Positions 1,594 through 37,140 of a DNA stretch of 39,820 nucleotides are shown piece after piece. The position numbers were made by a program, and so were the translations under genes. Source of the DNA: Vampirovibrionales bacterium (GTDB lineage: Bacteria > Cyanobacteriota > Vampirovibrionia > Vampirovibrionales > JAJTHC01); the NCBI GenBank assembly GCA_035285385.1, contig JAYKJM010000001.1, positions 1-39,820 on the forward strand, given 5' to 3'. The stretch's first letter is position 1, and every line of letters begins with the position of its first letter. The notes beneath the pieces are model-generated. The model saw nothing but the letters and a program-made list of their open reading frames with translations. It searched no databases and was not told where the DNA came from.

Positions 1594-1780
1594 AATTGCA
1601 AACCTCTGTTACGGTTTCGGCTCAATAAATGGGTTTGCACTGGTCGCCACACTCTCTTTCTGTCATAAGTGAATGCATCGAGAGTCACGATAAATTCAAA
1701 ATTTTGAGGGGCTCACACTAAATTCTTGAAATTATAGTGATAGTTGAAGGCTTAGTTGACAGCACGAGGAGTGACTTGTC

Positions 1781-2536
1781 TTGAAATTCCTGAAATTGAT
1801 TGAACGCCTTGAAGACCTAATTCTGGCCGGTTTGAATCTCCCCTTAACGCCCTGGACCATTGTCAACAATGAGCGCCTAATGCCATTGCTGGATCGCATT
1901 CGCGAGCAACTGCCCCAGGAATTACGGGAGGCATCCCAACTGCTCTCCCATCGCGATCAGGTCATTGAAGAAGCACGACGCCAGTCACTGCGTATTGTGC
2001 ATGATGCCCAACAGCAAGCAGAACACATGGTGTCAGAGTCTCAGTTGATGAGTGCCATTCAGGAAGAAGCCAATCGGGTCAAATCCCAATTGCTTCATGA
2101 GGGCGAAACCATTCGCCAAGAGGCCATGGCAGAAGCGGAGGCTATTTTACAGCGAGCCCGTGAACATGCCAGCCTAATGATTGACAAAACCTATGCCTGG
2201 GCACTTCAAACCACGCGGCAAACCCAATCATTTTTGTCGCAGCAGCTCCACGCCAGTGATGATGCCATCAATCAGCTGGGGTTAGAGCCTCCTGATGTAG
2301 ATTTTGTCTGTCAGGGTGCACTGCAGGCAACGCTCACTGACGCGCGGTCTGATGCCAAAAGACAGTCCGTTGCGGCAAAAAACAGTTTGCCACCTCTTAT
2401 CAATCATGAAGAGGAGTTGGCGCTGTGGACCAATGCCAATGGCGCTGCCTCAGCCAACCTTCAGACCAACAGCACCCAGAAAATGGTTTCAAAGTCTGTC
2501 AAAGCTCGTCAAAAACTCTTTTCAGGGATTGAGTAA
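1781..2536 (+). CDS. Coiled-coil protein of unknown function (long Gln/Glu/Ala-rich helix)
   Basis: 251-aa ORF with a TTG start 9 nt after AGGAG (1767-1771). It has a long heptad-like segment, EEARRQSLRIVHDAQQQAEHMV...EAMAEAEAILQRAREHA. I recognised no catalytic motif. Confidence 0.55.
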   Translation: MKFLKLIERLEDLILAGLNLPLTPWTIVNNERLMPLLDRIREQLPQELREASQLLSHRDQVIEEARRQSLRIVHDAQQQAEHMVSESQLMSAIQEEANRVKSQLLHEGETIRQEAMAEAEAILQRAREHASLMIDKTYAWALQTTRQTQSFLSQQLHASDDAINQLGLEPPDVDFVCQGALQATLTDARSDAKRQSVAAKNSLPPLINHEEELALWTNANGAASANLQTNSTQKMVSKSVKARQKLFSGIE

Positions 2537-2627
2537 GCCCTCAATGACGTCTAACGGATGCTTCTGTCTCTGTTATTTTGGTTAACCCTCTCTATTGTCC
2601 CCGGTTGTATCACAGGAGATTATTGCG

Positions 2628-2909
2628 ATGAACAAAGAAGAACTCATTCAGGAAATTGCAAAAAAAACCAAAGTGTCTCAAAAAGAAGTTGGTGACATCA
2701 TTGCTGTGACCATCGAAGTGATTGAAAAAGCTGTTTCCAAAGGAAAACGCGTAACCTTAGTTGGATTTGGCACCTTCGAGCCTCGCAAACGCAAGCCTCG
2801 CAATGCCCGTAACCCCCAAAATGGTGAAATGATCAAGGTTCCTGCCAAAACCGTTCCTGCCTTCTCTGCCGGTAAACGCTTCAAGGATAAAGTCAGCAAA
2901 ACCAAGTAA
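2628..2909 (+). CDS. hup: HU/IHF-family nucleoid-associated DNA-binding protein
   Basis: MNKEELIQEIAKKT...LVGFGTFEPRKRKPRNARNPQNGEMIKVPAKTVPAFSAGKRFKDKV matches the HU beta-arm signature (GFGxF..R..R.GRNP.tGe.i.ipa...p.F.aGk). A CAGGAGA SD lies at 2613-2619. Confidence 0.9.
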   Translation: MNKEELIQEIAKKTKVSQKEVGDIIAVTIEVIEKAVSKGKRVTLVGFGTFEPRKRKPRNARNPQNGEMIKVPAKTVPAFSAGKRFKDKVSKTK

Positions 2910-2941
2910 CACCCAATCGATTCTATTCATTAAATCTAAAA

Positions 2942-2974
2942 GCACCGACTTCTGAATATCAGGGTCGGTGTTTT
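2942..2974. terminator. Candidate bidirectional intrinsic terminator between convergent hup and the response regulator gene
   Basis: The stem GCACCGAC (2942-2949) pairs with GTCGGTG (2964-2970). It is followed by TTTTG on the + strand and flanked by CTTTTAGATTT on the - strand. Confidence 0.55.
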
Positions 2975-2975
2975 G

Positions 2976-3734
2976 TTAAAGAGCGACATGATCATTCAAG
3001 CGATAGCCGATATTGGTGACTGTTTCGAGGTATCGAGGCTGCTTGGGGTCTGCTTCAATTTTCTGACGGATGCCACCCACGTGCACCCTCAGCATTCGAA
3101 CATCTTCATCGGCATCGTATCCCCAAACCTCCTGCAAGAGGGTCGCCAAAGGCACACCCTCATTGACGTGCTGCATCAGACAAAACAGGATTTCAAACTC
3201 TGTCGGCGTCAACTTCTGTAGCTTGTCTTTCACCAGCACTTCCAGCGAGGTTGGCAGCAACCTCAGATCGCCGGCGGCAAGGCGATCTTCTTTCGGCTTG
3301 AGCCCACTTGACGATTTTGGCTTGCCCGCTGAGATGGCCGCAGGGGGTTGAAGCCCCTTGGCCCGACGAAACAAGGCACGCGTGCGAACAATCATCTCCT
3401 GAAATTCAAACGGCTTGACCAAATAATCATCAGCGCCAGCATTGAACCCTCTGACCTTGTCTTCAAGGGTGCCTTTTGCCGTCAGCAAAATAATAGGCAC
3501 CTCACAGGGGGTTGCAAAATGACGATTGGCTCGAATCTGGCGACACACCTCATAGCCATCGAGCTTGGGCATCATCACATCCAGCACGACCATATCAAAC
3601 GATTTTTGCTCGGCTTTTTTTAGACCCGCCACCCCATCGGATGCAGCATCAACCTCAAAGCCCAACAACTCAAAATCCAACCGAAGCAAATCCAAGATTT
3701 CGGCATCATCATCAACAACCAACACATGAACCAT
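2976..3734 (-). CDS. OmpR/PhoB-family response regulator (receiver plus winged-helix), with no adjacent histidine kinase
   Basis: The receiver domain shows VLVVDDD...DMVVLDVMMPKLDG...ILLTAKG...DDYLVKPF. The C-terminal trans_reg_C-like part reads LTPTEFEILFCLMQH...RMLRVHVGGIRQKIE...LETVTNIGYRL. The inter-domain linker is unusually long and Pro/Lys/Ser-rich. Confidence 0.9.
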   Translation of the reverse strand: MVHVLVVDDDAEILDLLRLDFELLGFEVDAASDGVAGLKKAEQKSFDMVVLDVMMPKLDGYEVCRQIRANRHFATPCEVPIILLTAKGTLEDKVRGFNAGADDYLVKPFEFQEMIVRTRALFRRAKGLQPPAAISAGKPKSSSGLKPKEDRLAAGDLRLLPTSLEVLVKDKLQKLTPTEFEILFCLMQHVNEGVPLATLLQEVWGYDADEDVRMLRVHVGGIRQKIEADPKQPRYLETVTNIGYRLNDHVAL

Positions 3735-3803
3735 GGAAATTCGTCAGTAGCCTTCCTCTGTGTCTCTGGCGTAACTTTGTTTTGTTTCAGATATCATCAT
3801 AGT

Positions 3804-9619: not shown

Positions 9620-9876
9620 CGTCTCGACAGACCTTCAAATTAGCTGTTTTATAAATTTTTTAAATCTTTTAACAAAAATTTTACGCTAGCTGCTACATCG
9701 TGAGATCCTGTGTTTAAATGACGTTGAATAATTTTATTAACGTTAATCACAATATTGGCTCGTAACGTTTTGAGGGTGATAGCAATAAATACTCTTGAGC
9801 GGTTTTGATTAAGCATCGCCCTGTTTTCTGGTGTTGATCACCGCATTTGTCTGATTTTTTGAGAGCTGCGCAACCA

Positions 9877-12800
9877 ATGGTGCCTCGCTTAAACGCTGTT
9901 TCTTTTGGTGGCTATCGACCATTGCCCTCTGGAGATGCCGCGCTGTACCATACTGGGAGTGCCTCGGCAAAACAGGTTGAAGTTGATGTCCAAGAGCCCA
10001 ACCGTGAAACCATTGAGCGCTATAAGCTAACCCAAAACATCAACAAACAAGGTTGGACATTGGCAAAATCTATCCCCGCCGGCAGCGCGTACCGCTTTTT
10101 AGTGGATGGCACCCCGCGGCTGGATACCGTGACACTGACGCCAGTGAATAACGAGACGTTTAACCAGATTGACAAAGATTTAAGTCGGCTGAATGCCTCT
10201 GGGACCATGTTGGATGTGTTTCAACACAGCTTGAAAACAACAACCCACCGCAGCCCTGGCAATTTGGCCGTTGGACGAACCACCCACTTCAACCAAAAAT
10301 CCGAAGCGGCCAATAATGGCCTACAGAACATGATCACTCAGCTACCTGCCGGCAGTGTTCAGACCATTATGCTCAAACCCTTTACGGAGGGGGGCTATTG
10401 GACAATCAATCCCTATAAGCTCTGTCCAAAATCATTCCAGAATGAAGCCGCCTTTGATCAGTTTCTGGGTGAGCTTTTGAAGCGTAACCAAACACTGACG
10501 ATGGATTTAGCGCTACTGAACCAGAACATGGAAGGAGGGCACTATCGAGCAAACCTGATTCATGGCGCCCGAAGCCCGTTTAACGCCTGGTTTATAGATA
10601 ACAGGGCAGAGCGAAGCCTTGAAAGCCCCTTGGCGCGCGTTCACAGTGAAGGTTTTACGCATGGAATTCTGCCCACCAAACGCGACCCTGTCAGTGGACA
10701 ACGCACCGCCATCGATTTTGATCGTTTTGAGGTTGGCTTCAGCAATGCGCCTGACACGGCACACTATAACCCTCTGCAGCAAACGTTTATCCAGATCATC
10801 CCCACGCTTAATCCTAATGATGACAGCATCCACGGCCCCGAAGATAGCGCACACTCCTATAGCTTTCCGGTTGATCCCAAACTGGTTCGTCAAAAACTTG
10901 AGACAGCCAAACAATCCCAGCTTGTGCCTGGTTCGGAGGCTTACAAACGGCTGATGTTGCACTGGCCTGCGTCAACGGGGTCTAGACCGCCACAAAAGAT
11001 GTCTGCCCAAAGTTTTGATGATGCTTTTGGCAAATGGAACGGCAATGTGGATGTCGCCTTGCTCGATCCAGAAAATCCTGAAGTGCGTGCCTATCTTTCT
11101 GGGGCGATCACGCATTGGGTCAGACGCGTTATAACGCACCACCGTGGGGCCTTGTCAGAGGCTCTGCCCTCAGTGCTGACGCCTGAAACATTGAAAAAAT
11201 TTGAAGAAACACGCTTTGCTAGCCTGAACAAACCACCCTTAAGCCCTCAGGTTCTGAGCAAGGCGCTCTCTGGCACAAATATTCCCACCAACCTAATGCC
11301 TGAAGTGCCGTTTGCTCAAACCCTGATTGATGAAACCCCATTATCAGCCTTGCCACTACCTAACGAGTGGCTTACTGCCACCAGCCTATCCGATTTTCAG
11401 AAAGCCTTGCGCGCCTCCCAACCTGCCAGTTGGCGCCAGCAAGAAGGGTTTCAGCACGCGTTAAAACATAAACTTAGCCAGGCTATGGCCACCCTGCCAG
11501 CTCATGAGAGAGAAAAGCTCTCTGAACCTTTGGTGCAAAGCCAACTGGCTTCAAAAATGGGAGCCGCTCTGTTTCTACAATTATTAACAGGCGCCTGCGA
11601 TCCTCAAGACGCAGAGACTCGCCTCTTTCAGAGTTTACCCAAGGTGTTGCTGACCAGTGATCCGACACTTATTGCCAGGCTATTGCCTGCAGAGCTAACC
11701 CGCAGGCTCAACGCTCTGCCTGAGAAAACACTTAAAACGCTCATTGCCGAGCCTCTTAAAGCGCTCGATCCAGCCAAATTAAGAGTCGCCGATGCCTTTA
11801 TTCAACACTATGGGCTAGGGCCAAACGTTCGGCTTGATGCCGCCAAAGATGTCACCGAATTTGATGACGTCTACGGCGCTGATACGCTTGAAACTCGCGA
11901 GAAAGCGCTCTATCAAGCCGTCAGCAGAGCCACCGATTTTTGGCAAGAACTTTTGGCACCGGCCAAAAAATTGTTTCCTAAAATGACCGTTTTGGCCGAA
12001 TTAACCGATGTCGCCAAACTGAGCGGCCCATTTCCGTCACTGGCTGAAAAAGCGTATCAGCAATTCTACACGGTATTTGACAGCAACCCAGATATGGATC
12101 ACGTTTTTGGGCCGGCCTACCAAAGTTTCCATTATGCGTCTCGACCGTTTGAATTTGGCGATGATCAACGCCTGCCCTATCAGGGCGAGGCAGCCAAGCC
12201 AAACTCCGGGGAGAACAAGTACGGCCTTTGGGAGTTTATTTGGCAACGCAGCACTAAATTCCCGCTTCATGTCCAGCAGCAATATCAAACCATGATTACA
12301 AGCCATGACTATTCAACCGCGACGCATAACTTTTTAGTCAATCCGCTCCTGTTTTTTGCAGATCGCGAGCCATGGCGGGGAATTCTTGACGACATCCACG
12401 ATAGTCGTATGGAACTATCAACCAAAGCCTGCTTTGAGCCCTTGCGACAAAAGCTGGCCAGTCAGGGGGTTAAAAATCCGGGCGATGCCCTCTATAAACT
12501 GGAGCAAACACTTCTCAAGCACCATCAAAATGGCACGCTGACTAAAAATATACGACCTCGCTCCTCGGCTTTTTTGAGCCAGACAGCCCTCAACGGGGAG
12601 TCCAAAAGCAAGGCCAATCTTGTGGCGGCAACCCCAACAGAGGCCAAAGCGCAACTGATTGAGCTGATGGCATTGAAAATCACCCCAAAAGACCTTGGCC
12701 TAGCCGATGAAGGCGCCAAAACAGCTTTAATAGAGATCTTTAAAGACTTTCTGACTGAATCGAGTGCGGCAAAAGCCAAGCGTGCCATTTTAAATAACGC

Positions 12801-13716
12801 CACGCTGGCCTTTTTTAGCGAAGGACCCAGCCGTGCTCCTTCCGCTTGGCAAAAATGGGCTAAAACACACCAGATTGACCCGCTTAAGGGAGACGCCCTT
12901 CAGGCTGAACTCTTCGATCGACTGGTCACGCTCTCTCAAAAAGAGGGTGAGGTCTTTGGTTACTGGCCGCTGGATTATACCTTGGATCGCTGGCTCAACA
13001 CCCTTGATAGCAACCTCATTGGCAATCATCAAGCGGCTTTTAAACAGGCACTATTTGATGCCACGCTCAATCACGCCCAAATCCCTCAAAAATTAGAACG
13101 TATAACAGCTCTTCAGGTCGCCTTGCCTGGACTGCCCTCTGTTTCCATCAATGATTTATTAGGCCCAGGCGGCGGCGAAACCGATAAAAATGCTATGGTG
13201 CAAAACCGCCAGCCTATTGATGTAACCCAGCCTGCCGTTAGCGACGTGCAGCGCCATATGCGCCAGAGTCAACTCAAACTAATGCAATTGCGTCACAGCT
13301 TGCCTGTCCTCAATGATGGCCTCCTTATTAACCCGGCACTGAGCGTGGCGCAACGCGACGTGTTAAACGATGCTGGCATTATGCCCATTATTCGAGACAA
13401 CGGGACAGATCAAGCCATTGTGCTCATTCACACGGGCAAGCCAAAGCCCATCAAAAATGAAGACAACGGCTGGACGGAGCGCATTGGGGATTTACCCACT
13501 TATAAGCACCCCTATGCCACGCAAGCTGTAGCCAAAAATTTTAAGCTGGATTTAAGTGCCTTAGATTTTCCGGTCGGTGCGGGTTATCAGGATGTGATGA
13601 CGGGTGATCGCCTGGTTATAAATAACAAAGGGCAACTGGTCAAGGCGGATGAACAAGGTCAACCCACCGATCATGGCCTCGATATTGAGACGGTTCGCGT
13701 TCTCAAGAGGCTATAA
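9877..13716 (+). CDS. Giant GH13 (alpha-amylase superfamily)-derived protein with a CBM48-like N-terminus and large barrel insertions
   Basis: GH13 blocks appear in the correct order. They are GSVQTIMLKPFTEGGYWTINPY...FDQFLGELLKRNQTLTMDLALLNQ (region I, His replaced by Gln), DVALLDPENPEVRAYL, VRLDAAKDV (region II; Asp codon at 11836-11838), MTVLAELTD (region III), MITSHDYS (region IV), ALPGLPSVSINDLLG and LMQLRHSLPVLNDG. The N-terminal GWTLAKSIPAGSAYRFLVDG resembles CBM48. The longest ORF starts at TTG9847; ATG9877 is preferred. Confidence 0.75.
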   Translation: MVPRLNAVSFGGYRPLPSGDAALYHTGSASAKQVEVDVQEPNRETIERYKLTQNINKQGWTLAKSIPAGSAYRFLVDGTPRLDTVTLTPVNNETFNQIDKDLSRLNASGTMLDVFQHSLKTTTHRSPGNLAVGRTTHFNQKSEAANNGLQNMITQLPAGSVQTIMLKPFTEGGYWTINPYKLCPKSFQNEAAFDQFLGELLKRNQTLTMDLALLNQNMEGGHYRANLIHGARSPFNAWFIDNRAERSLESPLARVHSEGFTHGILPTKRDPVSGQRTAIDFDRFEVGFSNAPDTAHYNPLQQTFIQIIPTLNPNDDSIHGPEDSAHSYSFPVDPKLVRQKLETAKQSQLVPGSEAYKRLMLHWPASTGSRPPQKMSAQSFDDAFGKWNGNVDVALLDPENPEVRAYLSGAITHWVRRVITHHRGALSEALPSVLTPETLKKFEETRFASLNKPPLSPQVLSKALSGTNIPTNLMPEVPFAQTLIDETPLSALPLPNEWLTATSLSDFQKALRASQPASWRQQEGFQHALKHKLSQAMATLPAHEREKLSEPLVQSQLASKMGAALFLQLLTGACDPQDAETRLFQSLPKVLLTSDPTLIARLLPAELTRRLNALPEKTLKTLIAEPLKALDPAKLRVADAFIQHYGLGPNVRLDAAKDVTEFDDVYGADTLETREKALYQAVSRATDFWQELLAPAKKLFPKMTVLAELTDVAKLSGPFPSLAEKAYQQFYTVFDSNPDMDHVFGPAYQSFHYASRPFEFGDDQRLPYQGEAAKPNSGENKYGLWEFIWQRSTKFPLHVQQQYQTMITSHDYSTATHNFLVNPLLFFADREPWRGILDDIHDSRMELSTKACFEPLRQKLASQGVKNPGDALYKLEQTLLKHHQNGTLTKNIRPRSSAFLSQTALNGESKSKANLVAATPTEAKAQLIELMALKITPKDLGLADEGAKTALIEIFKDFLTESSAAKAKRAILNNATLAFFSEGPSRAPSAWQKWAKTHQIDPLKGDALQAELFDRLVTLSQKEGEVFGYWPLDYTLDRWLNTLDSNLIGNHQAAFKQALFDATLNHAQIPQKLERITALQVALPGLPSVSINDLLGPGGGETDKNAMVQNRQPIDVTQPAVSDVQRHMRQSQLKLMQLRHSLPVLNDGLLINPALSVAQRDVLNDAGIMPIIRDNGTDQAIVLIHTGKPKPIKNEDNGWTERIGDLPTYKHPYATQAVAKNFKLDLSALDFPVGAGYQDVMTGDRLVINNKGQLVKADEQGQPTDHGLDIETVRVLKRL

Positions 13717-20486: not shown

Positions 20487-22610
20487 ATGACATCCCCTCA
20501 AGCGTCTCACCCTGAATTGCCCGTGGACATCCCACTGCGTTCTCAAACTATTGGCAGCCGTCTGGGGATTTTGGCGGGATTGGTGCTTTTATTGGTCACC
20601 ATTCTCTTGATGTTTCTGGTCTCGGTGAATCTTGGCTTTATTCTGGCCAAGGGTGCCAGTGCCCTGCCCGATGTCCGACTGCTCATGCAATGGCAGCCAA
20701 GTCAAAGTACCCGCATTTTTGACCGCGATGGGGAGCTTATTGCCAACATTCATGGGGATGAAGATCGGGTTGTGGTGCCGTTAAAAGATATTTCACCCAA
20801 CATTTGTCGCGCGGTAATGGCCATTGAAGATAATCGCTTTTACACGCATAACGGTATTGATATCCGAGGAACCGCCCGTGCCATCGTTCAAAATCTTAAA
20901 GGTGGCGACATGCAGGGTGGCAGTACGCTGACGCAACAACTTGTCAAAAACCTCTTTTTAAGTCCAGAGCGCTCTATTGGCAGAAAACTGGCCGAAGCGT
21001 TACTGGCGTTGCGGGTTGAGCAGTACTATGACAAAAACCGTATACTGGAGATGTACCTCAACCAAGTGTATTGGGGTAATCAGGCCTATGGCATTGAAAA
21101 AGCGGCTCGCCGTTATTTTAAGAAGTCTGCCAGTGAGCTCACCATTGCAGAGTCTGCTCAGTTAGCTGGCTTGCTCAAGGCGCCTGAGGGGCTTTCTCCG
21201 TTTCATTACCCCCAGGCAGCTCGCAAACGCCAGCTTGAAGTCCTTGAAGCCATGGTTAAATTTGGCTACATCACGCCAGAACAGCAAAAAGCAGCCATTA
21301 ACACCCAGTTAGTCTTTAATGATCAAGCCCCCAAAGCGTCGAGGCATCCTTATTTTGTGGCGCACGTCATTCAGGAATTAATAAAAATATACGGCAGCGA
21401 CGTGGTTCGCCGGGGGGGATTACGCGTTTACAGCACCATGGATGCCCAAGCACAGGATGCGGCCGAAAAAGCCATGGAAAATGGGGTCGGCAAGCTCCCC
21501 AAGAGTTCTCTGATTAACCAGGCGGCCCTGGTTTCAATGGATGTTGAAACCGGCGAAATTCTGGCTCTGGTAGGAGGGCTTGACTTTACAAAAAGCCAGT
21601 TTAATTCGGCGGTTCAAGCCAGCCGTGCTGCAGGCTCTACGTTCAAGCCCGTAGTTTATCTTACCGCGTTGCGGTTGGGCTTAATCACGCCGGAGAGCAT
21701 GATAGTGGATCGCCCCGTGTATTTTAATACGGGCTACAGCACGTGGGTTCCCAAAAACTGGGATGGTCGCTACATGGGCAGCATGACGATTCGACGCGCG
21801 CTTGCCTTAAGCCGAAATACCCCCACTGTGCAAATCGGGATGAAAGTCGGCATTGATGAAGTCATTAAAACCGCGCAGGCGGCAGGAGTGAGCTCTACAA
21901 TTATCCCAAATTTTTCCAGTCTGCTCGGATCTTCCGGGGTGTCTCCCATGGAAATGCTGACGGTTTATAATACTTTTGCCCGCATGGGTGAGAGGATATT
22001 GCCCACGGCCATTCAGCGGGTAGAAGATACCCGTGGTCATGACGTTGCTCTGGAGCGCCCACAGCCTGAGCGCGTTTTTGATGCCTACAATGTGAGCCAA
22101 CTGGTCAGCATGTTGATTGATGTGGTTGAAACCGGCAGCGGAAAATCGGCTCGAGTTGAAGGCCGGGTGGTTGCGGGTAAAACTGGCACCTCGGATCGCG
22201 TGGTCGATATCTGGTTTGCTGGCTTTACACCAGACATCAGCACCGTGGTGTGGATGGGCAATGAGCGTAATCAACCGCTTCGAGGCGTATTTAGCTTTAA
22301 TGCCGCCCAAGTTTTTCACGATTACACCAAAGCCTACTACGAGGCGCACCCGTTGCCCGCACGCGGCTTTGATCTGGTTGAATTGCGCGGAAAATACCCG
22401 AAAAAGAAAAAATTAGATGCTGCTAATGCCCCCTCCAAGCCACCAGCTGCAACCGAAGCCTCCCCATCCGATTCCGCCACCCAAAACGCTATGGACAGCA
22501 ATCAAGAGCCTCGAAATCCCCAAGCGCCTTCCTCAACCCCTCAACAGACCTCTCTACCTCCAGCTGCGACATTACCGCCGCCGCCTGTCCCCTTGGCACC
22601 TGTTCGCTAG
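20487..22610 (+). CDS. Class A penicillin-binding protein (bifunctional GT51 glycosyltransferase/transpeptidase), copy 1
   Basis: N-terminal TM anchor. GT51 motifs are EDNRFYTHNGID and GGSTLTQQLVKN. Transpeptidase motifs are STFKP (SxxK), SRN (SxN) and KTGTS. The C-terminal tail is Pro/Ser/Ala-rich. Confidence 0.92.
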   Translation: MTSPQASHPELPVDIPLRSQTIGSRLGILAGLVLLLVTILLMFLVSVNLGFILAKGASALPDVRLLMQWQPSQSTRIFDRDGELIANIHGDEDRVVVPLKDISPNICRAVMAIEDNRFYTHNGIDIRGTARAIVQNLKGGDMQGGSTLTQQLVKNLFLSPERSIGRKLAEALLALRVEQYYDKNRILEMYLNQVYWGNQAYGIEKAARRYFKKSASELTIAESAQLAGLLKAPEGLSPFHYPQAARKRQLEVLEAMVKFGYITPEQQKAAINTQLVFNDQAPKASRHPYFVAHVIQELIKIYGSDVVRRGGLRVYSTMDAQAQDAAEKAMENGVGKLPKSSLINQAALVSMDVETGEILALVGGLDFTKSQFNSAVQASRAAGSTFKPVVYLTALRLGLITPESMIVDRPVYFNTGYSTWVPKNWDGRYMGSMTIRRALALSRNTPTVQIGMKVGIDEVIKTAQAAGVSSTIIPNFSSLLGSSGVSPMEMLTVYNTFARMGERILPTAIQRVEDTRGHDVALERPQPERVFDAYNVSQLVSMLIDVVETGSGKSARVEGRVVAGKTGTSDRVVDIWFAGFTPDISTVVWMGNERNQPLRGVFSFNAAQVFHDYTKAYYEAHPLPARGFDLVELRGKYPKKKKLDAANAPSKPPAATEASPSDSATQNAMDSNQEPRNPQAPSSTPQQTSLPPAATLPPPPVPLAPVR

Positions 22611-28903: not shown

Positions 28904-31036
28904 ATGCTAGTGCACACCATGATAACGATGTTCTTTAAGTTCCTTGTGGGCGCCCTGGCCGTTTTGGGTGTCGTGTTTGTGTTCAATCGCTCTAGCATTG
29001 AACACGCCATTGCCGATCCCTTTACGTTGCCTTCAATGGAAGCCCTGGTCTCTGAAAGTGCACTGAATGCACCGCCCACCTCAAGCAGTCGCATCTTGGC
29101 ATCGGATGGCACGGTGATTCTGGCCAATGGACAGCTTCGCCATACGGCTGTGAAACTCAATGAGGTCTCTCCCGAGTTTATCAACGCGCTGGTTGCTACT
29201 GAAGATCGCCGTTTTTATCAGCATCACGGGGTGGACCCACTGGGTGTAGGGCGAGCCATTTTTGTGAACCTGACATCGGGTAACCTAAAAGAGGGTGCCA
29301 GTACCCTGACCCAACAGCTTGTGCGGATGTATCTTCTATCTAACGAGCGCACCTTAACCCGAAAACTCAAGGAAATGATTCTGGCTTGGCGCGTCGAAGA
29401 CAAGCTGAGTAAAGAGCAAATACTCGAGCGCTATATTAACAGTGTGTATTTTGGCCACGGCGCTTACGGCATTTATGCGGCCAGTATGCTGTATTTCAGC
29501 AAGGCGCCCAGCCAGTTGACGCAGTCAGAATCGGCACTGTTGGCGGGGCTACCACAAGCGCCATCTAATTATGACCCCATTATCAATCCAGAGCTGGCCA
29601 AATCACGGCGCAATGAGGTTATTCACAATATGGTCGAGGCGGGCTACCTGAAGCCCGAGCAAGCCCAATGGTATCAGCAACAGCGGCTTAACTTAAGGGC
29701 GCAATCGGCATTGGCAGCCGCCGGAAATCTTGCCCCTTATTTTAATCAGTATGTCTTGAAGTGGGTACAACAGAAATTTGCAATGACAGAAGGGGAATTC
29801 TGGTCCCAAGGATTACAGGTTCATACCACGCTTGATTTACGTGCGCAGCGCTTGGCAGAAGCGGCATTGGTTAATGGCTCTGCGGCGGTGGGTCGCACTG
29901 GCAATAACAAGCAGGGTGCCATGGTCGTCCTTGATCCAAAAACCGGCGCCGTGTTGGCTTATGTTGGCGGCTTGGGGTTTGAAAATAGCCAGTTTGATCG
30001 GGTGACCTTGGCCAAGCGTCCGCCGGGTTCCTTGTTTAAAGTGTTTACCTACACCGCTGCCATCGACTCTGGAATTGCCCCGGGCACGTTGTTTGTGGAT
30101 GAGCCGCTCACATTTGATAACTGGCGACCCAAAAACTATGATGGTCAACACCACGGCCAAATGAGCCTAGTGACCGCGTTAGCCCAATCCAATAACATTG
30201 TTGCTGTCAAACTGATTCAACAGCTGGGACCAGATAAGGTTGCAAGCTTAGCCAATCGCATGGGTGTCGAGTCCAGTTTGCCGCGAAATTTAGCCTTAAC
30301 CCTGGGTGGTGTGGATGTCACTTTACTGGAAATGACCAGTGCGGTGGCAACGCTGGCCAATCAGGGGATACACGCCCACACGTTTGCCATCTCTGGCATT
30401 ACCGATGCCCAGGGTCAAAGCCTTTACGAGGCACAACCCAGACAAGACGGGGTCTTATCTAGCAAAACAGCCCAAACCATGACCCAAATGCTCGTTGAAG
30501 TGATAACCCATGGCACAGGCAAAGCGGCACAAATCAATCGCCCGGTGGCAGGCAAAACCGGCACCAGTGATGATCATCGCGATGCCTGGTTTGTGGGGTA
30601 TACACCCTCGGTTGTGGCAGGCGTCTGGATGGGCAATGATGACAATACACCGATGCCCAAAGGCACTTCTGGCGGTGGGGTCCCCGCTCGGATTTTTGCC
30701 CGTTTTATGAGCAGTTATTTAGCCAAACGTGACGTGGAGTCATTTGATTTAACGCAAGCCGACCCCTTAGACGCCACAACTCAAGAGACGCCCACAACAG
30801 CAGAAGAGCATTCAGAAGCGGTGGAAGAGGCAACGGTGCCCTCCTCAGAGCAGCCTCCGATGGATAACTCAGCGCCTGAGACTAGGCTTGAAAACGCTGC
30901 AGAGCCCTCTGCATACAACACAGAAACAGACACGCCGACAGTGCCGTCTGCGGCGCCGGTGCCATTATCCGCGCCCTTGCCTGCCTCGCCAACGGCTGTA
31001 AAATCTCGCGAATCTCTTCAAAGTGCAGCAAACTAA
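28904..31036 (+). CDS. Class A penicillin-binding protein (GT51/transpeptidase), copy 2
   Basis: N-terminal TM anchor FKFLVGALAVLGVVFVF. Motifs are EDRRFYQHHGVD, GASTLTQQLVR, SLFKV (SxxK), SNN (SxN) and KTGTSDD. The C-terminal tail is acidic and Pro/Thr-rich. Confidence 0.92.
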   Translation: MLVHTMITMFFKFLVGALAVLGVVFVFNRSSIEHAIADPFTLPSMEALVSESALNAPPTSSSRILASDGTVILANGQLRHTAVKLNEVSPEFINALVATEDRRFYQHHGVDPLGVGRAIFVNLTSGNLKEGASTLTQQLVRMYLLSNERTLTRKLKEMILAWRVEDKLSKEQILERYINSVYFGHGAYGIYAASMLYFSKAPSQLTQSESALLAGLPQAPSNYDPIINPELAKSRRNEVIHNMVEAGYLKPEQAQWYQQQRLNLRAQSALAAAGNLAPYFNQYVLKWVQQKFAMTEGEFWSQGLQVHTTLDLRAQRLAEAALVNGSAAVGRTGNNKQGAMVVLDPKTGAVLAYVGGLGFENSQFDRVTLAKRPPGSLFKVFTYTAAIDSGIAPGTLFVDEPLTFDNWRPKNYDGQHHGQMSLVTALAQSNNIVAVKLIQQLGPDKVASLANRMGVESSLPRNLALTLGGVDVTLLEMTSAVATLANQGIHAHTFAISGITDAQGQSLYEAQPRQDGVLSSKTAQTMTQMLVEVITHGTGKAAQINRPVAGKTGTSDDHRDAWFVGYTPSVVAGVWMGNDDNTPMPKGTSGGGVPARIFARFMSSYLAKRDVESFDLTQADPLDATTQETPTTAEEHSEAVEEATVPSSEQPPMDNSAPETRLENAAEPSAYNTETDTPTVPSAAPVPLSAPLPASPTAVKSRESLQSAAN

Positions 31037-31039
31037 TGC

Positions 31040-34000
31040 TTATGCGGCAAGGTTCACCGTCCCCGGATAGGCTTTTAGTCCAGATTGCAATAGATTTGGT
31101 GTATTGACTTCAAACAGATGAAAAGTGCCCGGCCCAAGGCTCACGGAAACGGCATTATCCTGCGCAGATATCGTGCTGGGTTGACCATAAACAGGGCTTA
31201 AACGCACCATGGCAGAGCCACTTGTCAGCCCCGGCAGCTGAATTGATGCCTCATGACGAGCGTTGAGATCCTTATTGGCCAGGATAACCACCGTACGGCC
31301 GTTTAGATGGCGAGCAAAGGCAATTACCTGATTTAAGCCATCCTCACCAGCAGGACGATTGACTTTTAACGGGATAAACCACCCTTGTGTCAAAAGATCC
31401 CCAATTTCAGGGCGATTCGCTTGTGAAGAGGCAACATTTGGGAGAGCAACACCGCTAGAGGGCTGCACCGTGGCTGAGGGCTGAACGTGTTGGGCTCGGA
31501 GGGTGAGCATATGGCGCATAAAATGAGCAATTTCAGGATGATGACCACCGGGCTGGCGACTGAAATTAAAAATATCCAAATCGTTTGGATCGCCAGACTG
31601 CCAGCCATCCACCATGTAGACATTGCTCCAGGGTTGCGTGGCCATCAAGCCGGCTTGCAGCATCATCAGGGTTGGGCCGCCCACATTCAATGAACTGTGA
31701 TCATCGTGGGTGTAGAACGATGTAATGAAAGATTTTCCAGCACCCGCAGGCTTTAGCTCTTTTTCATAAGCATCAATCAGGTAGTGCATGTAGCTATCGG
31801 CGGAAGGCAGGTTATGAAAAATATGGAATTGCCCGTACTCACTATCAAAGCCCGATTTCAGTAACTCTTGCGGTCGATCGGCTGGCAGGTTTGCAATGGC
31901 CGATGTTTCTTCGGTGTAGGTTTCAGCCAGCCAGGCTTTATCAGGATATCGTTGAATGGCTTGCTGCCAGAAGCCATCCGTTCGGGCTCTTGCAACATCT
32001 GCGCGAAATCCGTCAACACCAAGCTGATTGACCATTAAATCCAGAAAGCCGTCAAAATACCGACGCACATCCGGGCTATCTGGCTTTATCATCATAATGT
32101 CTTGCCACGTGGTTGGAATTTTAAAATGCCCTTTTTTGTCCAGCAGCATTAATTCGGGCTTGGCAATGGCTAAATCCAACGCGGCACAACTCGGAATATC
32201 AGCCATAACAGCGATACCGCGTTTGTGACACTCATTGATAAATAGCTTTGCCGCCGCCATGGCATCAACCCCAGGAGGCGCCAGCTGTGGATTCAATCGA
32301 TGCATGTTCTCAATGGCATAGACGCTGCCTGCATTGCCAAATTTGAACATATCGCCAGCATCCACAATAGGAAGCATATGGATGGTATTGACACCCAGAG
32401 TTTTGAGTTCATCCAATCGTTTGATGGCACTTAGGAAGGTGCCCGTCTCGCCCATACTCCAAATGTATTTGCCATCATTGTTTTTATCCTGGGTGGCAAA
32501 AGTTCGAATATTCAAGGCGTAAATCACACCTCGATTTCGCTGCATGGCCTGCTTAAGCGGGTTCGCTCTTGATGCGACCAGAGGAGATGCAGCCATATTG
32601 GACGGCATTAAGGCAGGGGTGGCCAAGGCAGAAACCGCTTGCACCATAGACGGCGTTGCTGTAACAGGTGTTGCGCCAGGTATCGTGCTTGGCATTGTTG
32701 CAAGCGATGTTGCTGGCGAGAACCTCACAGGCTGAGCCGTCACGGCAGCGCCAAAGCGGGCATTGTTGGCGACAAGCGGTGTGGCATAAAGCGTCTGCAT
32801 GGCAACCGCGGCAGGCATCTGACTGAGAATGCCCATATCCAGAGCTCCGTTAACTCTTGCAAATTCCATGGCGTTTTTAAGTTTGGGATCCCGCGTAAGG
32901 TTGCGAACATCATGAGGGGTCATTGGAGACAAATTAGGGGTCACCGGTGCTGCAGATTTTGTAAGCGCCAGGGCAGAAAATAACGCCCATAAGGCTGTAA
33001 CCCCACCGCCTAATAGCCCAAGGTATCGAGTTCGCCAAAGTTTGGTTCGAAGCGCAGCTTCGCTCAGTTGCGTAAGCTGCTTTGCAGGTAAAACCCCAAA
33101 GCGGGTAAAAGCCTCCTGAAAATTCCGATTTTCAACCGCTTTAAGAAGCGTCGCATACGCGTCTGGGCAGTTGCCCAGGGTTTCCATGGCCGCTTTTGCC
33201 GCCCCCGATTTAACCAGTTTTTGGAACTCGGCCAGCGATGACTGTTCGAGACGGGCTTGAATGCGCGCCGCAGAAAATTTGGAGCCCGAGTGCAACATGT
33301 CGTCAATCAGGAGGCTATAGCGCCTTAAGGAATTCATCGCTCCGGAGACAGCAAACTCTGCCTGCTGAAGCATTCTCGTGGTGGTGGCAGGCTGAGTCGA
33401 GTCACCAGAGGCGACAAGACCACGTTTAACCGTCTTAGTAAGCTCCTTCTGTAAGGCGGCTAATTGATTCAACCGACCGCGCAACCCTTCTTGAGGGTTA
33501 CTGCCGAGCGCTTGACGAAGGCGCAGAAGTTGATCCTTTTCCAGCTGATGGAGATGTTGACTTAAATGCTCAAGCGCAAACTGGGGGTCTTGCTGCATTT
33601 TTTTCTGCAGGGTGGCATCCGCAAGATTCAGGCCACGGGTGAGGGTTTTGGATAAATCCTCCCACCAGTGCGTCAGATCGGTTTTAGCGCCATCCTTGCC
33701 GTTTCCAAAAACGAGCGCGAATTTTTTTGCAGCAGAAGGTACTAATCCCTTATGAAGGCCATGAAGAGCCCGTTCAATAGGATTTTGTGTCACGTGTGCC
33801 ATGGCACTGGCCAGCACTGGGGTCATTGGGCCTGCAGCCAGCAGCCAGGCGGTCTCGGCCTGGGTGGCAATTTTTTGCATGGTGTCTTCAACATTATCAG
33901 GGCTGTCACCAAGGCGCGCTGAAATGCGGCGCTTGAGAGCCTCGGGCAACAGATGATGCGGGATGTGGTCAGACTCTTCAAAGACGCGTTTTTGGTCTTT

Positions 34001-34339
34001 TTCCATGGTGTGATAGTTGAGCCCCATCGGCACAGCGGCTCGAATGTTTGTAAAAATATCTCGAAGTTTCGGGGTGCTGGCCATGGCCGCATACCAGCTG
34101 GCAAAACCAATCAGCTCGCGCATCGCAAACGGCCTGCCCAGCGCATTGCCTGAAATCAGCCCCGCAATCATTAAGCTGCTGGCGCGCTTTAGGGTGTCAC
34201 TCAGTTGCGCCATTTGTGGATCGTGCATGGGGGTGCCCTTTGCCGCATCAACGATGGTTTGGGCGCTTTGAATATAGGGTTTCGGCCCTTGCCAAAGCTG
34301 TTGATAAATCGGCACGGAGGTGGCCAAATGCGTCTGCAT
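31040..34339 (-). CDS. Single-pass membrane protein: unknown ~435-aa N-domain, TM, Ala/Pro/Thr-rich linker, divergent GH13-type (alpha/beta)8 domain
   Basis: The TM segment is YLGLLGGGVTALWALFSALALT (nt ~32960-33025). The GH13 blocks are LGVNTIHMLPIVD, HKRGIAVMADIPSC (region I, NH lost), GVDGFRADVA (region II; Asp codon at 31997-31999), AWLAETYT (region III) and FYTHDDH (region IV). Its start overlaps the upstream gene's stop (TAATG at 34337-34341). Confidence 0.75.
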   Translation of the reverse strand: MQTHLATSVPIYQQLWQGPKPYIQSAQTIVDAAKGTPMHDPQMAQLSDTLKRASSLMIAGLISGNALGRPFAMRELIGFASWYAAMASTPKLRDIFTNIRAAVPMGLNYHTMEKDQKRVFEESDHIPHHLLPEALKRRISARLGDSPDNVEDTMQKIATQAETAWLLAAGPMTPVLASAMAHVTQNPIERALHGLHKGLVPSAAKKFALVFGNGKDGAKTDLTHWWEDLSKTLTRGLNLADATLQKKMQQDPQFALEHLSQHLHQLEKDQLLRLRQALGSNPQEGLRGRLNQLAALQKELTKTVKRGLVASGDSTQPATTTRMLQQAEFAVSGAMNSLRRYSLLIDDMLHSGSKFSAARIQARLEQSSLAEFQKLVKSGAAKAAMETLGNCPDAYATLLKAVENRNFQEAFTRFGVLPAKQLTQLSEAALRTKLWRTRYLGLLGGGVTALWALFSALALTKSAAPVTPNLSPMTPHDVRNLTRDPKLKNAMEFARVNGALDMGILSQMPAAVAMQTLYATPLVANNARFGAAVTAQPVRFSPATSLATMPSTIPGATPVTATPSMVQAVSALATPALMPSNMAASPLVASRANPLKQAMQRNRGVIYALNIRTFATQDKNNDGKYIWSMGETGTFLSAIKRLDELKTLGVNTIHMLPIVDAGDMFKFGNAGSVYAIENMHRLNPQLAPPGVDAMAAAKLFINECHKRGIAVMADIPSCAALDLAIAKPELMLLDKKGHFKIPTTWQDIMMIKPDSPDVRRYFDGFLDLMVNQLGVDGFRADVARARTDGFWQQAIQRYPDKAWLAETYTEETSAIANLPADRPQELLKSGFDSEYGQFHIFHNLPSADSYMHYLIDAYEKELKPAGAGKSFITSFYTHDDHSSLNVGGPTLMMLQAGLMATQPWSNVYMVDGWQSGDPNDLDIFNFSRQPGGHHPEIAHFMRHMLTLRAQHVQPSATVQPSSGVALPNVASSQANRPEIGDLLTQGWFIPLKVNRPAGEDGLNQVIAFARHLNGRTVVILANKDLNARHEASIQLPGLTSGSAMVRLSPVYGQPSTISAQDNAVSVSLGPGTFHLFEVNTPNLLQSGLKAYPGTVNLAA

Positions 34340-35490
34340 TAACGGGCGCCTCCAGCAGGTTCATAATGCTTGCCAATATGGGCATTTTCCATAGCAAACA
34401 GCGTATAGAGCAGTGAGGCCATAACCGTCACAAGTGCCACATTAGCCGGCCACCTTGGGGCTTTGAGTGCACCAACCGGGGGCTGCCAGTAGCGCTTCAA
34501 GATAACCCCAACATTGCGTAGTTTTTCAGGCCATGATGCGGGCATTTTCGCGGATTCTAACGTGTCTTGCAAAAAAGTTCTGGGAGATTGAAAGAGTGTG
34601 CCCCCCAGATGTGCCAGATAACCAGCGCCCACCGCCGCCAGGACATTTCCCAGAAGGATTTTACTCACTCGAGCGGCCGGTACAATGCCATCCAGCTGTC
34701 GTCTAACTTCCCAGTCGGGGGCGGCAATGGTCTCTGGAATGTTCATTTTGCGGCGCATCGTTTGAAGATCTGCCTTGGAGAGCAAATCATCACGATCAAA
34801 CATGACGCTGTCAAACACGCCCGCAATTTGCCCCTTGTTATTGTGATATTTCATTGTCAAATCTACCCCGTAGCGAAGCTTATACAGGGTATTCACCACC
34901 GCGTTGGCCACAGGAAATCCAATAAAATAGCCCAAACACGCTAAGGCTGGCTTAAGTGCATTTTTAGCCGCCATGGAGCCTCCTGGCGCCAAATACGAAG
35001 CCACAAGCGCAGCACCACCTAAATAATAAGGGATTTGAGCCACCCGCATTTTGTCAGAAAATTCAAACCGGGGATCCCCACTCAAGCCTTTCCAAACCGA
35101 TTTGGGGGTTTCAATTACGAGATTTTGAAACGAGAGAGCGGCTTTCTGAAACGCATTGAGCGACACAATATATTCTGAGATTCGTGTTCGAACGCCGGTT
35201 TTATACTGTGTGGCAGGATCCATTAAAGAGATACCCGTTCCCACAGAGTCTGCCTTAGGGAGTGTCGCCTCTGACACCAGAGGCTGCGGACGCTTTGGCA
35301 TTAGCGGATTCAATACATTTGAAAAGGCGTAAGCATTTTGAATGGTTTGTGGCAATTGCCCCCCACCATCAGAGAGCGCCTGGGCATATAATCCCATCCG
35401 TTGGGGGGTCAAGTCCAACGAGGGCATGCGTCCCAAGCCCGGGTAATTCCCGGCAACCGACAATGGAAACGCAATGGGTGTCATCGACAT
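34339..35490 (-). CDS. Polytopic (about 4 TM) membrane protein of unknown function, translationally coupled to the GH13 membrane protein
   Basis: 383 aa. The hydrophobic spans are IPYYLGGAALVASYLAPGG, ALACLGYFIGFPVANAVVNTL, ILLGNVLAAVGAGYLAHLGG and ANVALVTVMASLLYTLFAM. Its stop codon shares one base with the downstream ATG. Confidence 0.6.
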   Translation of the reverse strand: MSMTPIAFPLSVAGNYPGLGRMPSLDLTPQRMGLYAQALSDGGGQLPQTIQNAYAFSNVLNPLMPKRPQPLVSEATLPKADSVGTGISLMDPATQYKTGVRTRISEYIVSLNAFQKAALSFQNLVIETPKSVWKGLSGDPRFEFSDKMRVAQIPYYLGGAALVASYLAPGGSMAAKNALKPALACLGYFIGFPVANAVVNTLYKLRYGVDLTMKYHNNKGQIAGVFDSVMFDRDDLLSKADLQTMRRKMNIPETIAAPDWEVRRQLDGIVPAARVSKILLGNVLAAVGAGYLAHLGGTLFQSPRTFLQDTLESAKMPASWPEKLRNVGVILKRYWQPPVGALKAPRWPANVALVTVMASLLYTLFAMENAHIGKHYEPAGGAR

Positions 35491-35685
35491 AACGGAAATG
35501 AATCCAGTTTGCCTATACAGAAAAAAATTATGCCATTACGCAAGGTCTGCGCAATGAAATGATTTTTGAACCTTTGTTTGAAAATATGTTAAACCTTAGA
35601 GCGATTGATGGTGCGTGTTGTTCCAGATTGATGGCAAAGGCCTCATCCTCTGGTATTTCATTAAACCGCCTCAAGAAATTTTGTG

Positions 35686-35805: not shown

Positions 35806-37140
35806 TCAATCACAAAAGGAGGCGTTAACAGCATGTTCAGCCTGTTTAAGCGCTTCATCAATACTCACCTGATTCAACAGCGCCGATTGCACGGCAAAAT
35901 CCACAGCCGCGTTTATCTGCGCGTCGTTAATCAATAACGGATTCGTCACCTTGGCATTCAAAAGTTGCCATGCGGCAAGCGCTCTGGCACGAGATTCCAA
36001 TGACATCGGCAGTGAATGGGTTTTGACAGTGGATAACCCAAAAAAAGCAGGATCGTCAAGGTAGGCATCTAGAATTGAGGGCAATACAGCAACAGATCTT
36101 GCCAAAGCAAGCTGAAAGGAGGATTGCGTTAAATGCTTGGCCAGTGCCACGGCCAACCGTCGATGCCTACTTTTGACAGGAACCACCAGCACCATCGGTG
36201 AAACATCCAGATAGCCATTCTGTTTGAAACCCTCTTGCGGGAATGCGGGTGCAATGTTAGTGCTGGCGTATACCTCAGGAGCATTGTCACGCACGGAGCT
36301 CAGAAAATTTCCACCAATAGACAACAGAGCCAAGCGAGCGGCCAGATACTGTTCAACGGAGGCACGGTGTCCCTCGGTTAACGCTTCCGCAGGAATTAAT
36401 CGGCGGGCAAAAAGTAACTTGAAAAATTGAAGTCGCTGGGCAACTCTGGCATCGTCAGACCACTGAAGGCATCCGTTTGATGTTGATATAGGCTCAATAC
36501 CTTCACGCCGCAAGAGTTTCAGAAACGAACCCCCTTCTGAGAGGGTTGGCATCATGACCTTAGCGCTATGTTTTTGCTCAAGCCAGCTTGCCAGAGTAGA
36601 AACCTGAGACCAAGACTCAGGAATTACGGTTTGATTTTGTTTTTTAGGCAGTAAAGCTTGATTAGCCAGCGTAATGGTAGTGGTTACATACCACGGGATG
36701 CCCACCGAGACTGTACGAACTGGGCTTTGCTGCATTTGCGTCGCCTGCCACACAACCGGAACATAGGCGGCCTGCTCTGAAGGCGTCAGGGCAGTATTCA
36801 TATTGATCAACGCAGAACGCTGAGCCAGAATGGCTGCAAATCCAGGGTTTAGATTAATAACATCAGGAACCGAGGGGCTCAGGATAGCCGCAATTGCGCG
36901 TTTTTTTCCTTCCGTAAAAGGCAAATCTTCCCACTGCACGTGAACGCCAGGGTGCGTTTTCTCAAACTCGCGAATACTCTGGCGTATCAAAGGCGAAAAC
37001 GCCCCCATTTGAAGCGTCCAGAGACGAAGGGTTACATCCCGTAGAGAGGAGGATGAAGGTTTTGAAGCATCACGCTGGCACCCAGTGATGAGAAACACAC
37101 AAGCGGCCAAAGCGATAACAATAGCAGGCATCCACCTCAT
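35806..37140 (-). CDS. ABC-transporter extracellular solute-binding lipoprotein (family 1, sugar/oligosaccharide type), with no permease or ATPase partner in the window
   Basis: The lipobox is ALAACVFLITGC. It continues LRLWTLQMG...IREFEKTHPGVHVQWEDLPF...SPSVPDVINLNPGFAAILAQRSALINMN, which is typical of SBP_bac_1-type sugar binders. Confidence 0.8.
   Translation of the reverse strand: MRWMPAIVIALAACVFLITGCQRDASKPSSSSLRDVTLRLWTLQMGAFSPLIRQSIREFEKTHPGVHVQWEDLPFTEGKKRAIAAILSPSVPDVINLNPGFAAILAQRSALINMNTALTPSEQAAYVPVVWQATQMQQSPVRTVSVGIPWYVTTTITLANQALLPKKQNQTVIPESWSQVSTLASWLEQKHSAKVMMPTLSEGGSFLKLLRREGIEPISTSNGCLQWSDDARVAQRLQFFKLLFARRLIPAEALTEGHRASVEQYLAARLALLSIGGNFLSSVRDNAPEVYASTNIAPAFPQEGFKQNGYLDVSPMVLVVPVKSRHRRLAVALAKHLTQSSFQLALARSVAVLPSILDAYLDDPAFFGLSTVKTHSLPMSLESRARALAAWQLLNAKVTNPLLINDAQINAAVDFAVQSALLNQVSIDEALKQAEHAVNASFCD

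Follow-up and report, generated by a model that had tools for sequence, protein, structure and literature searches.

What does an amylase-type enzyme do at the end of a protein whose other half, like the gene that it overlaps, matches no characterized family? The question is raised by two minus-strand genes at positions 31040-35490 of the stretch of DNA analyzed here (the window), which comprises 39,820 nucleotides (nt) of contig JAYKJM010000001.1 from a Vampirovibrionales bacterium (assembly GCA_035285385.1). The upstream gene, which we call X (34339-35490), encodes 383 amino acids (aa), and the downstream gene (31040-34339) encodes a 1099-aa protein that ends in a glycoside hydrolase family 13 (GH13) domain. 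Comparison with relatives identifies the large protein as a fusion of a second component, Y, with the GH13 enzyme, such that the unit really consists of three components (X, Y, and GH13), of which X and Y are paralogs that may form a membrane anchor for the enzyme.

The two open reading frames (ORFs) overlap by a single base in the TAATG that the preliminary description of this DNA had pointed out, and the minus-strand sequence of the junction (34337-34353), GGAGGcgcccgttAATG, can be read directly: the TAA stop of X occupies 34341-34339, the ATG of the large ORF occupies 34339-34337, and a GGAGG Shine-Dalgarno sequence (34353-34349) lies 9 nt upstream of that ATG, within the 3' end of X. Because the ribosome-binding site of the large ORF thus sits inside the end of X, translational coupling is supported, though such a site speaks in favor of coupling rather than proving it. 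At the corresponding junctions of relatives, the genes overlap by as much as 4 nt or lie up to 2 nt apart. Judged by their conservation, both ORFs are real genes, since full-length homologues were found for each, at 52% identity for the large protein and at 62-89% identity for X (seven homologues). The closest relative of the large protein (P0002, the 52% match) is likewise fused, and a single Vampirovibrionales metagenome-assembled genome (MAG; GCA_035285025) holds the nearest relatives of three window proteins, at 47-62% identity. Plus-strand ORFs of 76-125 aa in the same region were treated as shadows of the long minus-strand genes.

The three-component nature of the unit emerges from genomes in which the large protein is split. 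In most relatives, all of them Melainabacteria, X, Y, and GH13 are three overlapping genes and the Y-GH13 fusion is the minority form; in distant genomes X is followed by two overlapping genes, one for Y (446-889 aa, no Pfam match) and then one for a PF00128 protein (538-637 aa), and Y and GH13 are separate overlapping genes in loci L004, L005, L007, and L009 and in those of P0006 and P0008. The stand-alone Y proteins align over their full length with aa 1-460 of the window protein, terminal hydrophobic helix included, and aa ~600-1099 have their counterpart in the stand-alone GH13 proteins (40-60% identity). The order X-Y-GH13, with genes overlapping or abutting, was found in nine distinct loci, so that the pair is conserved as neighbors, a check that the preliminary description had called for: a hidden Markov model (HMM) scan of all ORFs revealed it in the window, L001, L004, L005/6, L007, L009, and L010, gene tables revealed it in the P0006 and P0008 loci, and the incomplete locus L003 has X and then Y.

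Out of 1.84 billion representatives, a sensitive search with the Y part retrieved 280 clusters (50% identity), and a GH13 domain was present in 4 of the best 150 hits (P0002, P0138, P0148, and P0150), so that fused forms, with the window protein included, make up five 50%-identity clusters. The GH13 part alone, used as query in a word-indexed search, has at least 946 homologues, and one GH13 cluster alone occurs on 130 contigs, belonging to abundant gut lineages. Judged by the source names of the homologues, on which the taxonomic range of the unit rests, all named sources are Cyanobacteriota/Melainabacteria (Vampirovibrionales, Vampirovibrionia, Gastranaerophilales, and Candidatus Adamsella). 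The full-length search with the large protein returned two proteins only, probably because matches to its low-complexity linker filled the candidate list, and a GTDB genome scan with the X alignment used peptide patterns so strict that it recovered nothing beyond the known Vampirovibrionales MAG.

Fusion of Y to GH13 probably occurred at least twice, because the window protein and P0002 stand apart from P0138, P0148, and P0150 in a neighbor-joining tree of the GH13 domain (suggestive only, as it carries no bootstrap support) and because the linkers of the two groups are unlike (~150 aa and Ala/Pro/Thr-rich in the first, 60-70 aa in the second). Recurrent fusion of this kind argues, in the Rosetta-stone sense, for a physical interaction between Y and the GH13 enzyme, and it would also place the C-terminus of Y and the N-terminus of the enzyme in one compartment. 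That the split loci make a joined Y-GH13 product by programmed frameshifting was considered and rejected, as the overlaps are ordinary stop/start overlaps of 1-13 nt and the relative frame is inconsistent between loci.

Comparing the X and Y families by profile-profile alignment (hhalign) revealed that the two are paralogs, with a probability of 97.6% and an E-value of 4.5e-12 over 160 columns, and the HMMs of X and Y cross-match each other's ORFs in every locus (1e-8 to 1e-14). A module shared by the two genes had been suspected from one loosely parallel stretch; the module holds and the stretch falls in the same register of the profile alignment, whereas a direct comparison of X and Y from the window reaches no significance (BLASTP E 0.15, 18% identity). 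The homologous cores, aa 126-295 of X (34606-35115) and aa 23-183 of Y (33791-34273), share a helix-helix-loop-helix layout. In X this conserved core runs through helix 1, helix 2, a conserved loop (RYGVDL..Y..G..VF..., MxIP), and helix 3, with all three helices weakly hydrophobic, and the loop holds a beta-hairpin together with the motifs that had been flagged in the preliminary description. The order of secondary-structure elements is equal in the AlphaFold2 models of X and Y.

Around this core the two proteins differ in what they carry. X begins with a disordered tail (aa 1-97) and ends in a C-terminal hydrophobic helix (aa 347-367, 34390-34452) with a Kyte-Doolittle (KD) hydropathy of 1.82 and a Hessa-type sum of +1.4 kcal/mol, the lowest in X. 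The Y part (aa 1-438, 33026-34339) adds a helical insert (aa 186-438) that is long and variable in length across the family, whose members span 446-1286 aa, and is followed by helix 4 (aa 439-459, 32963-33025), the strongest membrane-type helix, with a conserved LGGG motif. The KD value of Y helix 4 is 1.74 in the window (aa 440-458) and averages 1.66 in the family, with 0.19 charged residues per segment; in the AlphaFold2 model of the Y part, which is all-helical (predicted local distance difference test, pLDDT, 78.7; predicted TM-score 0.69), it belongs to a continuous helix spanning aa 418-458. Helix 4 of both X and Y is conserved, uncharged, strongly hydrophobic, and flanked by Lys/Arg. 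The description of X as a protein with four transmembrane segments stands in so far as three of its four hydrophobic segments reach a KD of at least 1.5, whereas the Hessa-type sum leaves only the last as a clear membrane helix.

Neither protein could be assigned to a characterized family. Pfam gave no match for 27 Y members and 9 X members; NCBIfam gave none for X, and its scan of the whole 1099-aa protein matched in the GH13 part only; the best hit of the Y profile against Protein Data Bank (PDB) sequences was noise (E 0.027); and Foldseek, run with the Y model, retrieved neither a solved fold (PDB) nor a predicted viral one (BFVD), its top hit reaching E 0.5 and TM scores not exceeding 0.19. 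In X and Y, domains for signalling, DNA binding, or carbohydrate binding were not detectable.

The layout first proposed for the large protein (a helical N-part over aa 1-438, a hydrophobic helix at aa 440-458, an Ala/Pro/Thr-rich linker, and a GH13 domain) is upheld throughout. The linker, hereafter the tether, is an Ala/Pro/Thr/Met-rich low-complexity segment (aa 460-600, 32540-32962) in which A, P, T, M, S, and V account for 64% of residues and charged residues for 10% (aa 461-600). Its equivalent in stand-alone GH13 homologues is their Pro-rich N-terminal tail, which averages 109 aa (range 50-220 aa) and 18.7% Pro. The catalytic domain with its domain-C-like end follows (aa 601-1099, 31043-32539). 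Pfam PF00128 scores 30.3 bits against a gathering cutoff of 22 and covers aa 620-715 only, the first part of the barrel, and Malt_amylase_C matches weakly at aa 1003-1045. The window protein alone finds the solved structure 4GKL at E 3.9e-16 (phmmer against the PDB), and a 33-sequence family profile matches the same structure at E 3.9e-37 over nearly the whole domain (profile positions 124-486), followed among solved relatives by 3DHU (2.6e-28), 1GJU (1.3e-25), and the GlgE structure 3ZSS (5e-20). These matches and an invariant triad substantiate the divergent GH13 barrel with catalytic carboxylates that had been recognized from the letters alone. With barrel and triad present, the neighbors conserved, the partners outside characterized families, and the X-Y similarity significant in profile alignment, every refuting condition set by the preliminary description was examined and none came true; its GlgE and envelope readings lose weight.

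The predicted catalytic residues are the nucleophile D781 (31997-31999) in conserved sequence region (CSR) II, the acid/base E806 (31922-31924) in CSR-III, and the transition-state stabilizer D879/D880 (31700-31705) in CSR-IV, with D781 and E806 falling on the corresponding residues of GlgE and 4GKL in the alignment. The motifs quoted earlier lie where they had been placed, namely VMADIPSC (711-718), GVDGFRADVA (774-783), AWLAETYT (802-809), and FYTHDDH (875-881), and so do the replacements of canonical residues: the N-H of region I has become C718-A719 (Cys in 32/33 family members) and the K-H of region II has become R784-A785. Across the family two of the three canonical His residues (CSR-I and CSR-II) are therefore absent and that of CSR-IV is retained, and the signatures read D-[VLI]-P-S-C-A in region I, R-x-D-V-A-R-A-[RK] in region II, P-x-x-W-x-D-I-x-M-F, T-H-D-D, and N-P-Y-x-x-D-G-F. 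D781, E806, D880, R779, and D714 are invariant in the 33-sequence alignment, and H878 (the CSR-IV His) and D879 are each present in 32 members; because of this conservation of the triad, R779, D714, and H878, the enzyme should be active. The domain looks like a separate clade, so far confined to Melainabacteria. Its loss of the region I His recurs in two of its top solved relatives, both maltosyltransferases, and hints weakly at transferase activity.

Tails of the stand-alone enzymes also carry a short motif, D-x-F-x-[RQ] (often P-x-D-S/Q-F-Q-R), found in 21 of 55 homologues where shuffling predicts 0.6, although 2 of the 21 have it only at the start of the catalytic domain (DLKD[LM]FHRN). Carriers include P0012, P0020, P0029-P0033, P0036, P0039, P0042, P0045, and P0053. 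The motif, which is not in the covalent linker of the window protein, may be a docking motif for X or Y.

From these observations we propose, with moderate confidence, that a heteromeric X-Y anchor tethers a cytoplasmic GH13 enzyme active on alpha-1,4-glucans. X and Y would be paralogous integral-membrane proteins, each with three weakly hydrophobic helices, a loop between helices 2 and 3, and a strong C-terminal helix, that probably pair as a membrane anchor or scaffold. The third component would be a retaining GH13 enzyme working through D781, E806, and D879/D880, kept at the cytoplasmic face of the membrane by a long, flexible Pro/Ala/Thr-rich tether that would be covalent in this genome, where Y is fused to GH13, and non-covalent in most relatives through the Pro-rich N-terminal tail. 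Glycogen or maltodextrin is its most likely substrate, and there, as its nearest characterized relatives do, the enzyme would trim short maltooligosyl units or transfer them.

Which side of the membrane the enzyme faces is central to this proposal, and we consider a cytoplasmic location probable because the stand-alone GH13 homologues inspected all start with a Pro-rich, non-hydrophobic tail and have neither signal peptide nor membrane helix, and because the recurrent neighbors of the unit are alpha-glucan enzymes that are likewise signal-less, namely GlgA-like glycosyltransferase family 5 (GT5) proteins (729-1061 aa), a TreZ/GlgB-like protein, and giant GH13-like proteins (1270-1472 aa). A four-helix topology with both termini inside fits X and Y, given their four homologous hydrophobic segments (KD 1.2-2.05 in other lineages) and long N-tails without signal peptides. 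The enzyme on the envelope side that the preliminary description entertained is accordingly less likely, and we rate it as improbable: Y helix 4 would then be a type II signal anchor, with the N-domain of Y in the cytoplasm and the C-terminus outside, and the enzyme would act on imported or envelope alpha-glucans or maltodextrins and could feed the ATP-binding cassette (ABC) transporter of the binding protein encoded upstream. Several observations do weigh against a cytoplasmic enzyme on a four-helix anchor. In the proteins of the window itself, helices 1-3 show only weak hydrophobicity (KD 1.0-1.24; Hessa-type sums of +4 to +10 kcal/mol), so that a topology with an even number of helices is not secure, and helix 4 is the only convincing membrane helix there; the X model is of low confidence (pLDDT 56.6); Ala/Pro/Thr linkers like the one seen here are typical of extracytoplasmic tethers; a gene for a lipoprotein sugar-binding protein (SBP_bac_1, 35806-37140) lies directly upstream; and alpha-glucan genes adjoin the unit in only about half of the loci. 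Lys/Arg residues around helix 4 of the Y family are also more numerous on the N-flank (3.85 on average) than on the C-flank (2.26), which by the positive-inside rule would put the C-terminus outside, but the rule gives conflicting answers among family members (the C-flank is the more basic in the fusion P0148) and was not used to decide the topology. A periplasmic enzyme is harder to reconcile with stand-alone homologues that lack signal peptides, with a fusion, probably arisen twice, that would need to move the enzyme across the membrane and still be retained, with four homologous segments in X and Y that are clearly hydrophobic in other lineages, with a binding-protein neighbor that is not conserved in other loci, and with nearest characterized relatives that are intracellular.

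Two further readings give X and Y other tasks. In one, a maltosyl- or glucanotransferase resembling GlgE and the maltosyltransferases (MTases) would build an alpha-glucan for which X and Y form a conduit to the envelope; the missing region I His (as in 1GJU and GlgE), X/Y helices that are rich in small residues (Gly/Ala) and thus channel-like, and the GlgA-like GT5 genes adjoining the unit in L001, L007, and the P0006 locus are in keeping with it, yet we judge it quite unlikely, as none of the three GlgE phosphate-binding residues is kept (PMC4663749), no maltokinase or TreS gene was seen in the flanks, no transporter or channel matched structurally better than E 0.5, and the module contains no outer-membrane or periplasmic partner genes. 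It is more doubtful still that X and Y are not an anchor at all and instead form a soluble or granule-associated helical scaffold or regulator, with the hydrophobic helices as buried cores, or a glucan-sensing transducer. The weak hydrophobicity of helices 1-3 and the long helical insert of variable length in Y would suit such a role, whereas the conserved, uncharged, strongly hydrophobic, and Lys/Arg-flanked helix 4 of both proteins would not, and the absence of any detectable signalling, DNA-binding, or carbohydrate-binding domain also speaks against it. For the sensing device that had been suggested in particular, nothing points to sensing.

An extension of the tethering model would make X and Y a new class of paired polytopic membrane proteins that organize alpha-glucan metabolism at the membrane, a 'glucanosome', and we offer it as a speculation that is unlikely in this full form. 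X and Y would dock the GH13 enzyme through its Pro-rich tail (with D-x-F-x-[RQ] serving in the subset of unfused homologues that have it), a part of the proposal that we hold just as tentatively, and the neighboring GlgA-like and giant GH13-like enzymes might be docked too. The assembly could serve to position glycogen granules or to pass glucan chains across the membrane. A loose analogy exists in chloroplasts, where membrane-anchored coiled-coil proteins localize starch initiation.

Outside the unit, the genes around it show some recurrent features. Long GlgA-like GT5 genes (729-1061 aa) stand beside the module at L001 6263-8662, L007 9129-12314 (minus strand), and 1560-3749 of the P0006 locus; only their C-terminal half matches glycogen synthase models (~270-430 of 477 positions, far below cutoffs), and the remainder is without annotation. 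In two other lineages the module is flanked by giant ORFs (1333 and 1472 aa) with a faint alpha-amylase likeness (L005 8983-12984; L007 1-3686, minus strand). The window itself holds, ~17 kb from the module, a plus-strand ORF of 1289 aa (9847-13716) without a Pfam match that shares 47% identity, from end to end, with the gene next downstream of X/Y-GH13 in the Vampirovibrionales MAG (L001 14061-17873), and that by eye looks like a very divergent GH13 protein (MDLALVNQN, GAEVTDI, SSHDY, and a domain-C-like end). An N-terminal '[RHS]-F-G' motif that appeared to be shared among neighboring glucan enzymes was dropped as too short and based on few examples; it may be the start of a CBM48-like domain.

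Directly upstream of X and on the same strand, the sugar ABC-transporter substrate-binding lipoprotein gene (SBP_bac_1, signal LITGC; 35806-37140, minus strand) has no adjoining permease or ATPase genes and was not seen as a neighbor in other loci. In the 315-nt gap that separates it from X (between 35491 and 35805), a weak promoter-like site (35729-35701) is followed downstream by a terminator-like hairpin (35533-35557, minus strand; 11 pairs and then a T-run). This hairpin lies ~40 nt upstream of the X start codon and could terminate the upstream transcript or be a leader/attenuator. The upstream leader has no Rfam match, a promoter scan of the region gave signals not above background, and no tandem repeats were found in the region. 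Other nearby genes of the window encode FlhA, MurB, and two class A penicillin-binding proteins (28904-31036 and 20487-22610, both plus strand and within 10 kb), the first of which runs to within 3 nt of the stop of the convergent Y-GH13 gene, with no terminator space between the two. A further plus-strand ORF (1781-2536, 251 aa) has a sub-threshold match to phasin PF05597 (21.5 bits against a cutoff of 28.8, E 2.6e-4).

GH13 enzymes are among the best studied of all carbohydrate enzymes, and the catalytic part looks like a new clade of this very well-known family. Neither the X-Y pair nor the obligatory three-gene architecture has a described counterpart in the family libraries, solved structures, and literature on Melainabacteria, glycogen, and GH13 that we searched, and the one paper found on Melainabacteria glycogen enzymes does not mention the unit. 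In the searched literature, a GH13 enzyme obligatorily encoded with, and sometimes fused to, a paralogous pair of membrane proteins of unmatched fold is thus undescribed, even though the module is widespread in Melainabacteria, including abundant gut lineages and relatives of the algal predator Vampirovibrio. Should the tethering model be true, these cyanobacterial relatives would organize glycogen or maltodextrin metabolism at the membrane; X and Y would each found a new protein family, and the enzyme probably a GH13 subfamily of its own, lacking two of the three canonical histidines.

Among known enzymes, the best solved relatives of the domain are the GH13_48 maltogenic amylase AmyB of Thermotoga neapolitana (4GKL) and a related Lactobacillus plantarum enzyme (3DHU), with which it shares the A-B-C domain layout, a GFRxDVA-type region II without Lys-His, W-x-D-[IV] in domain B, and, probably, an intracellular location without signal peptide. 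These nearest characterized relatives are intracellular amylases to judge from titles in the reference list of a GH13_48 study (PMC11239784). The signatures differ at several points. Region I of the window family has C-A (DIPSCA) in place of N-H, an ending typical of most GH13 subfamilies and not specific to GH13_48 (PMC11239784). The residue directly before the nucleophile is Cys in 81% of GH13_48 members and otherwise Ala, Val, or Leu (PMC11239784), and in the window it is A780 and in the family Val (18/33) or Ala (14/33) and never Cys (0/33), which agrees with the minority state of GH13_48 only. CSR-V and CSR-VII end in L-[DN] and G-Q in GH13_48 (PMC11239784); in the window family, with the register against 4GKL read by eye in the profile alignment, the L-[DN] ending of CSR-V is missing, domain B carries W-x-D-I-x-M-[FI]-K, and CSR-VII is N-P-Y-x-x-D-G-[FW], ending in G912-W913 in the window. 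Unlike GH13_48 enzymes, too, the window family has a Pro-rich tail and is always encoded behind two membrane-protein genes or fused to one.

GlgE (GH13_3; 3ZSS, 4U2Y, and 5CGM), to which a likeness had been put forward, is the fourth-best solved relative, at E 5e-20 over most of the barrel, and the resemblance is real: the two align at nucleophile and acid/base (RVD / LAE), both lack the region I His, and domain B has [WY]-x-D-I. Membership does not follow from it. The phosphate-binding residues N371, Y376, and N414 (M. thermoresistibile numbering) are conserved in all GlgE (PMC4663749), whereas the profile alignment to 3ZSS places K740, W745, and V782 of the window protein at these positions, keeping 0 of 3; in that alignment AENPPKKYQDI pairs with k-t-k-v-P-t-n-W-v-D-i and RVDN pairs with RvDv. 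The N and S domains and inserts 1 and 2 of GlgE are likewise missing, as the match begins at GlgE chain residue 249 and only the low-complexity tether lies upstream of the window barrel, and GlgE is a soluble enzyme. The genes called within 7-10 kb at eight loci, and those of the window, include neither TreS, nor the maltokinase Pep2, nor GlgM. By these signature features, the domain lies in the neighborhood of 4GKL, the MTases, and GlgE and appears to belong to neither GH13_48 nor GH13_3.

The third-best solved relative (E 1.3e-25), the T. maritima maltosyltransferase / maltodextrin glycosyltransferase (1GJU, 1GJW), shares the loss of N-H in region I (DFIPRTAARD vs. DIPSCAALD in the window), yet it aligns well only over the first ~130 barrel residues, with weak fragments thereafter, and it is without membrane partners. 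Lipoprotein pullulanases and the periplasmic amylase MalS reach their site of action beyond the cytoplasm by Sec export, for which they carry signal or lipobox peptides. The likeness to them is that of a GH13 enzyme held at the membrane, whereas the enzyme described here lacks a signal peptide and is linked to two dedicated partners, paralogous polytopic proteins of unmatched fold.

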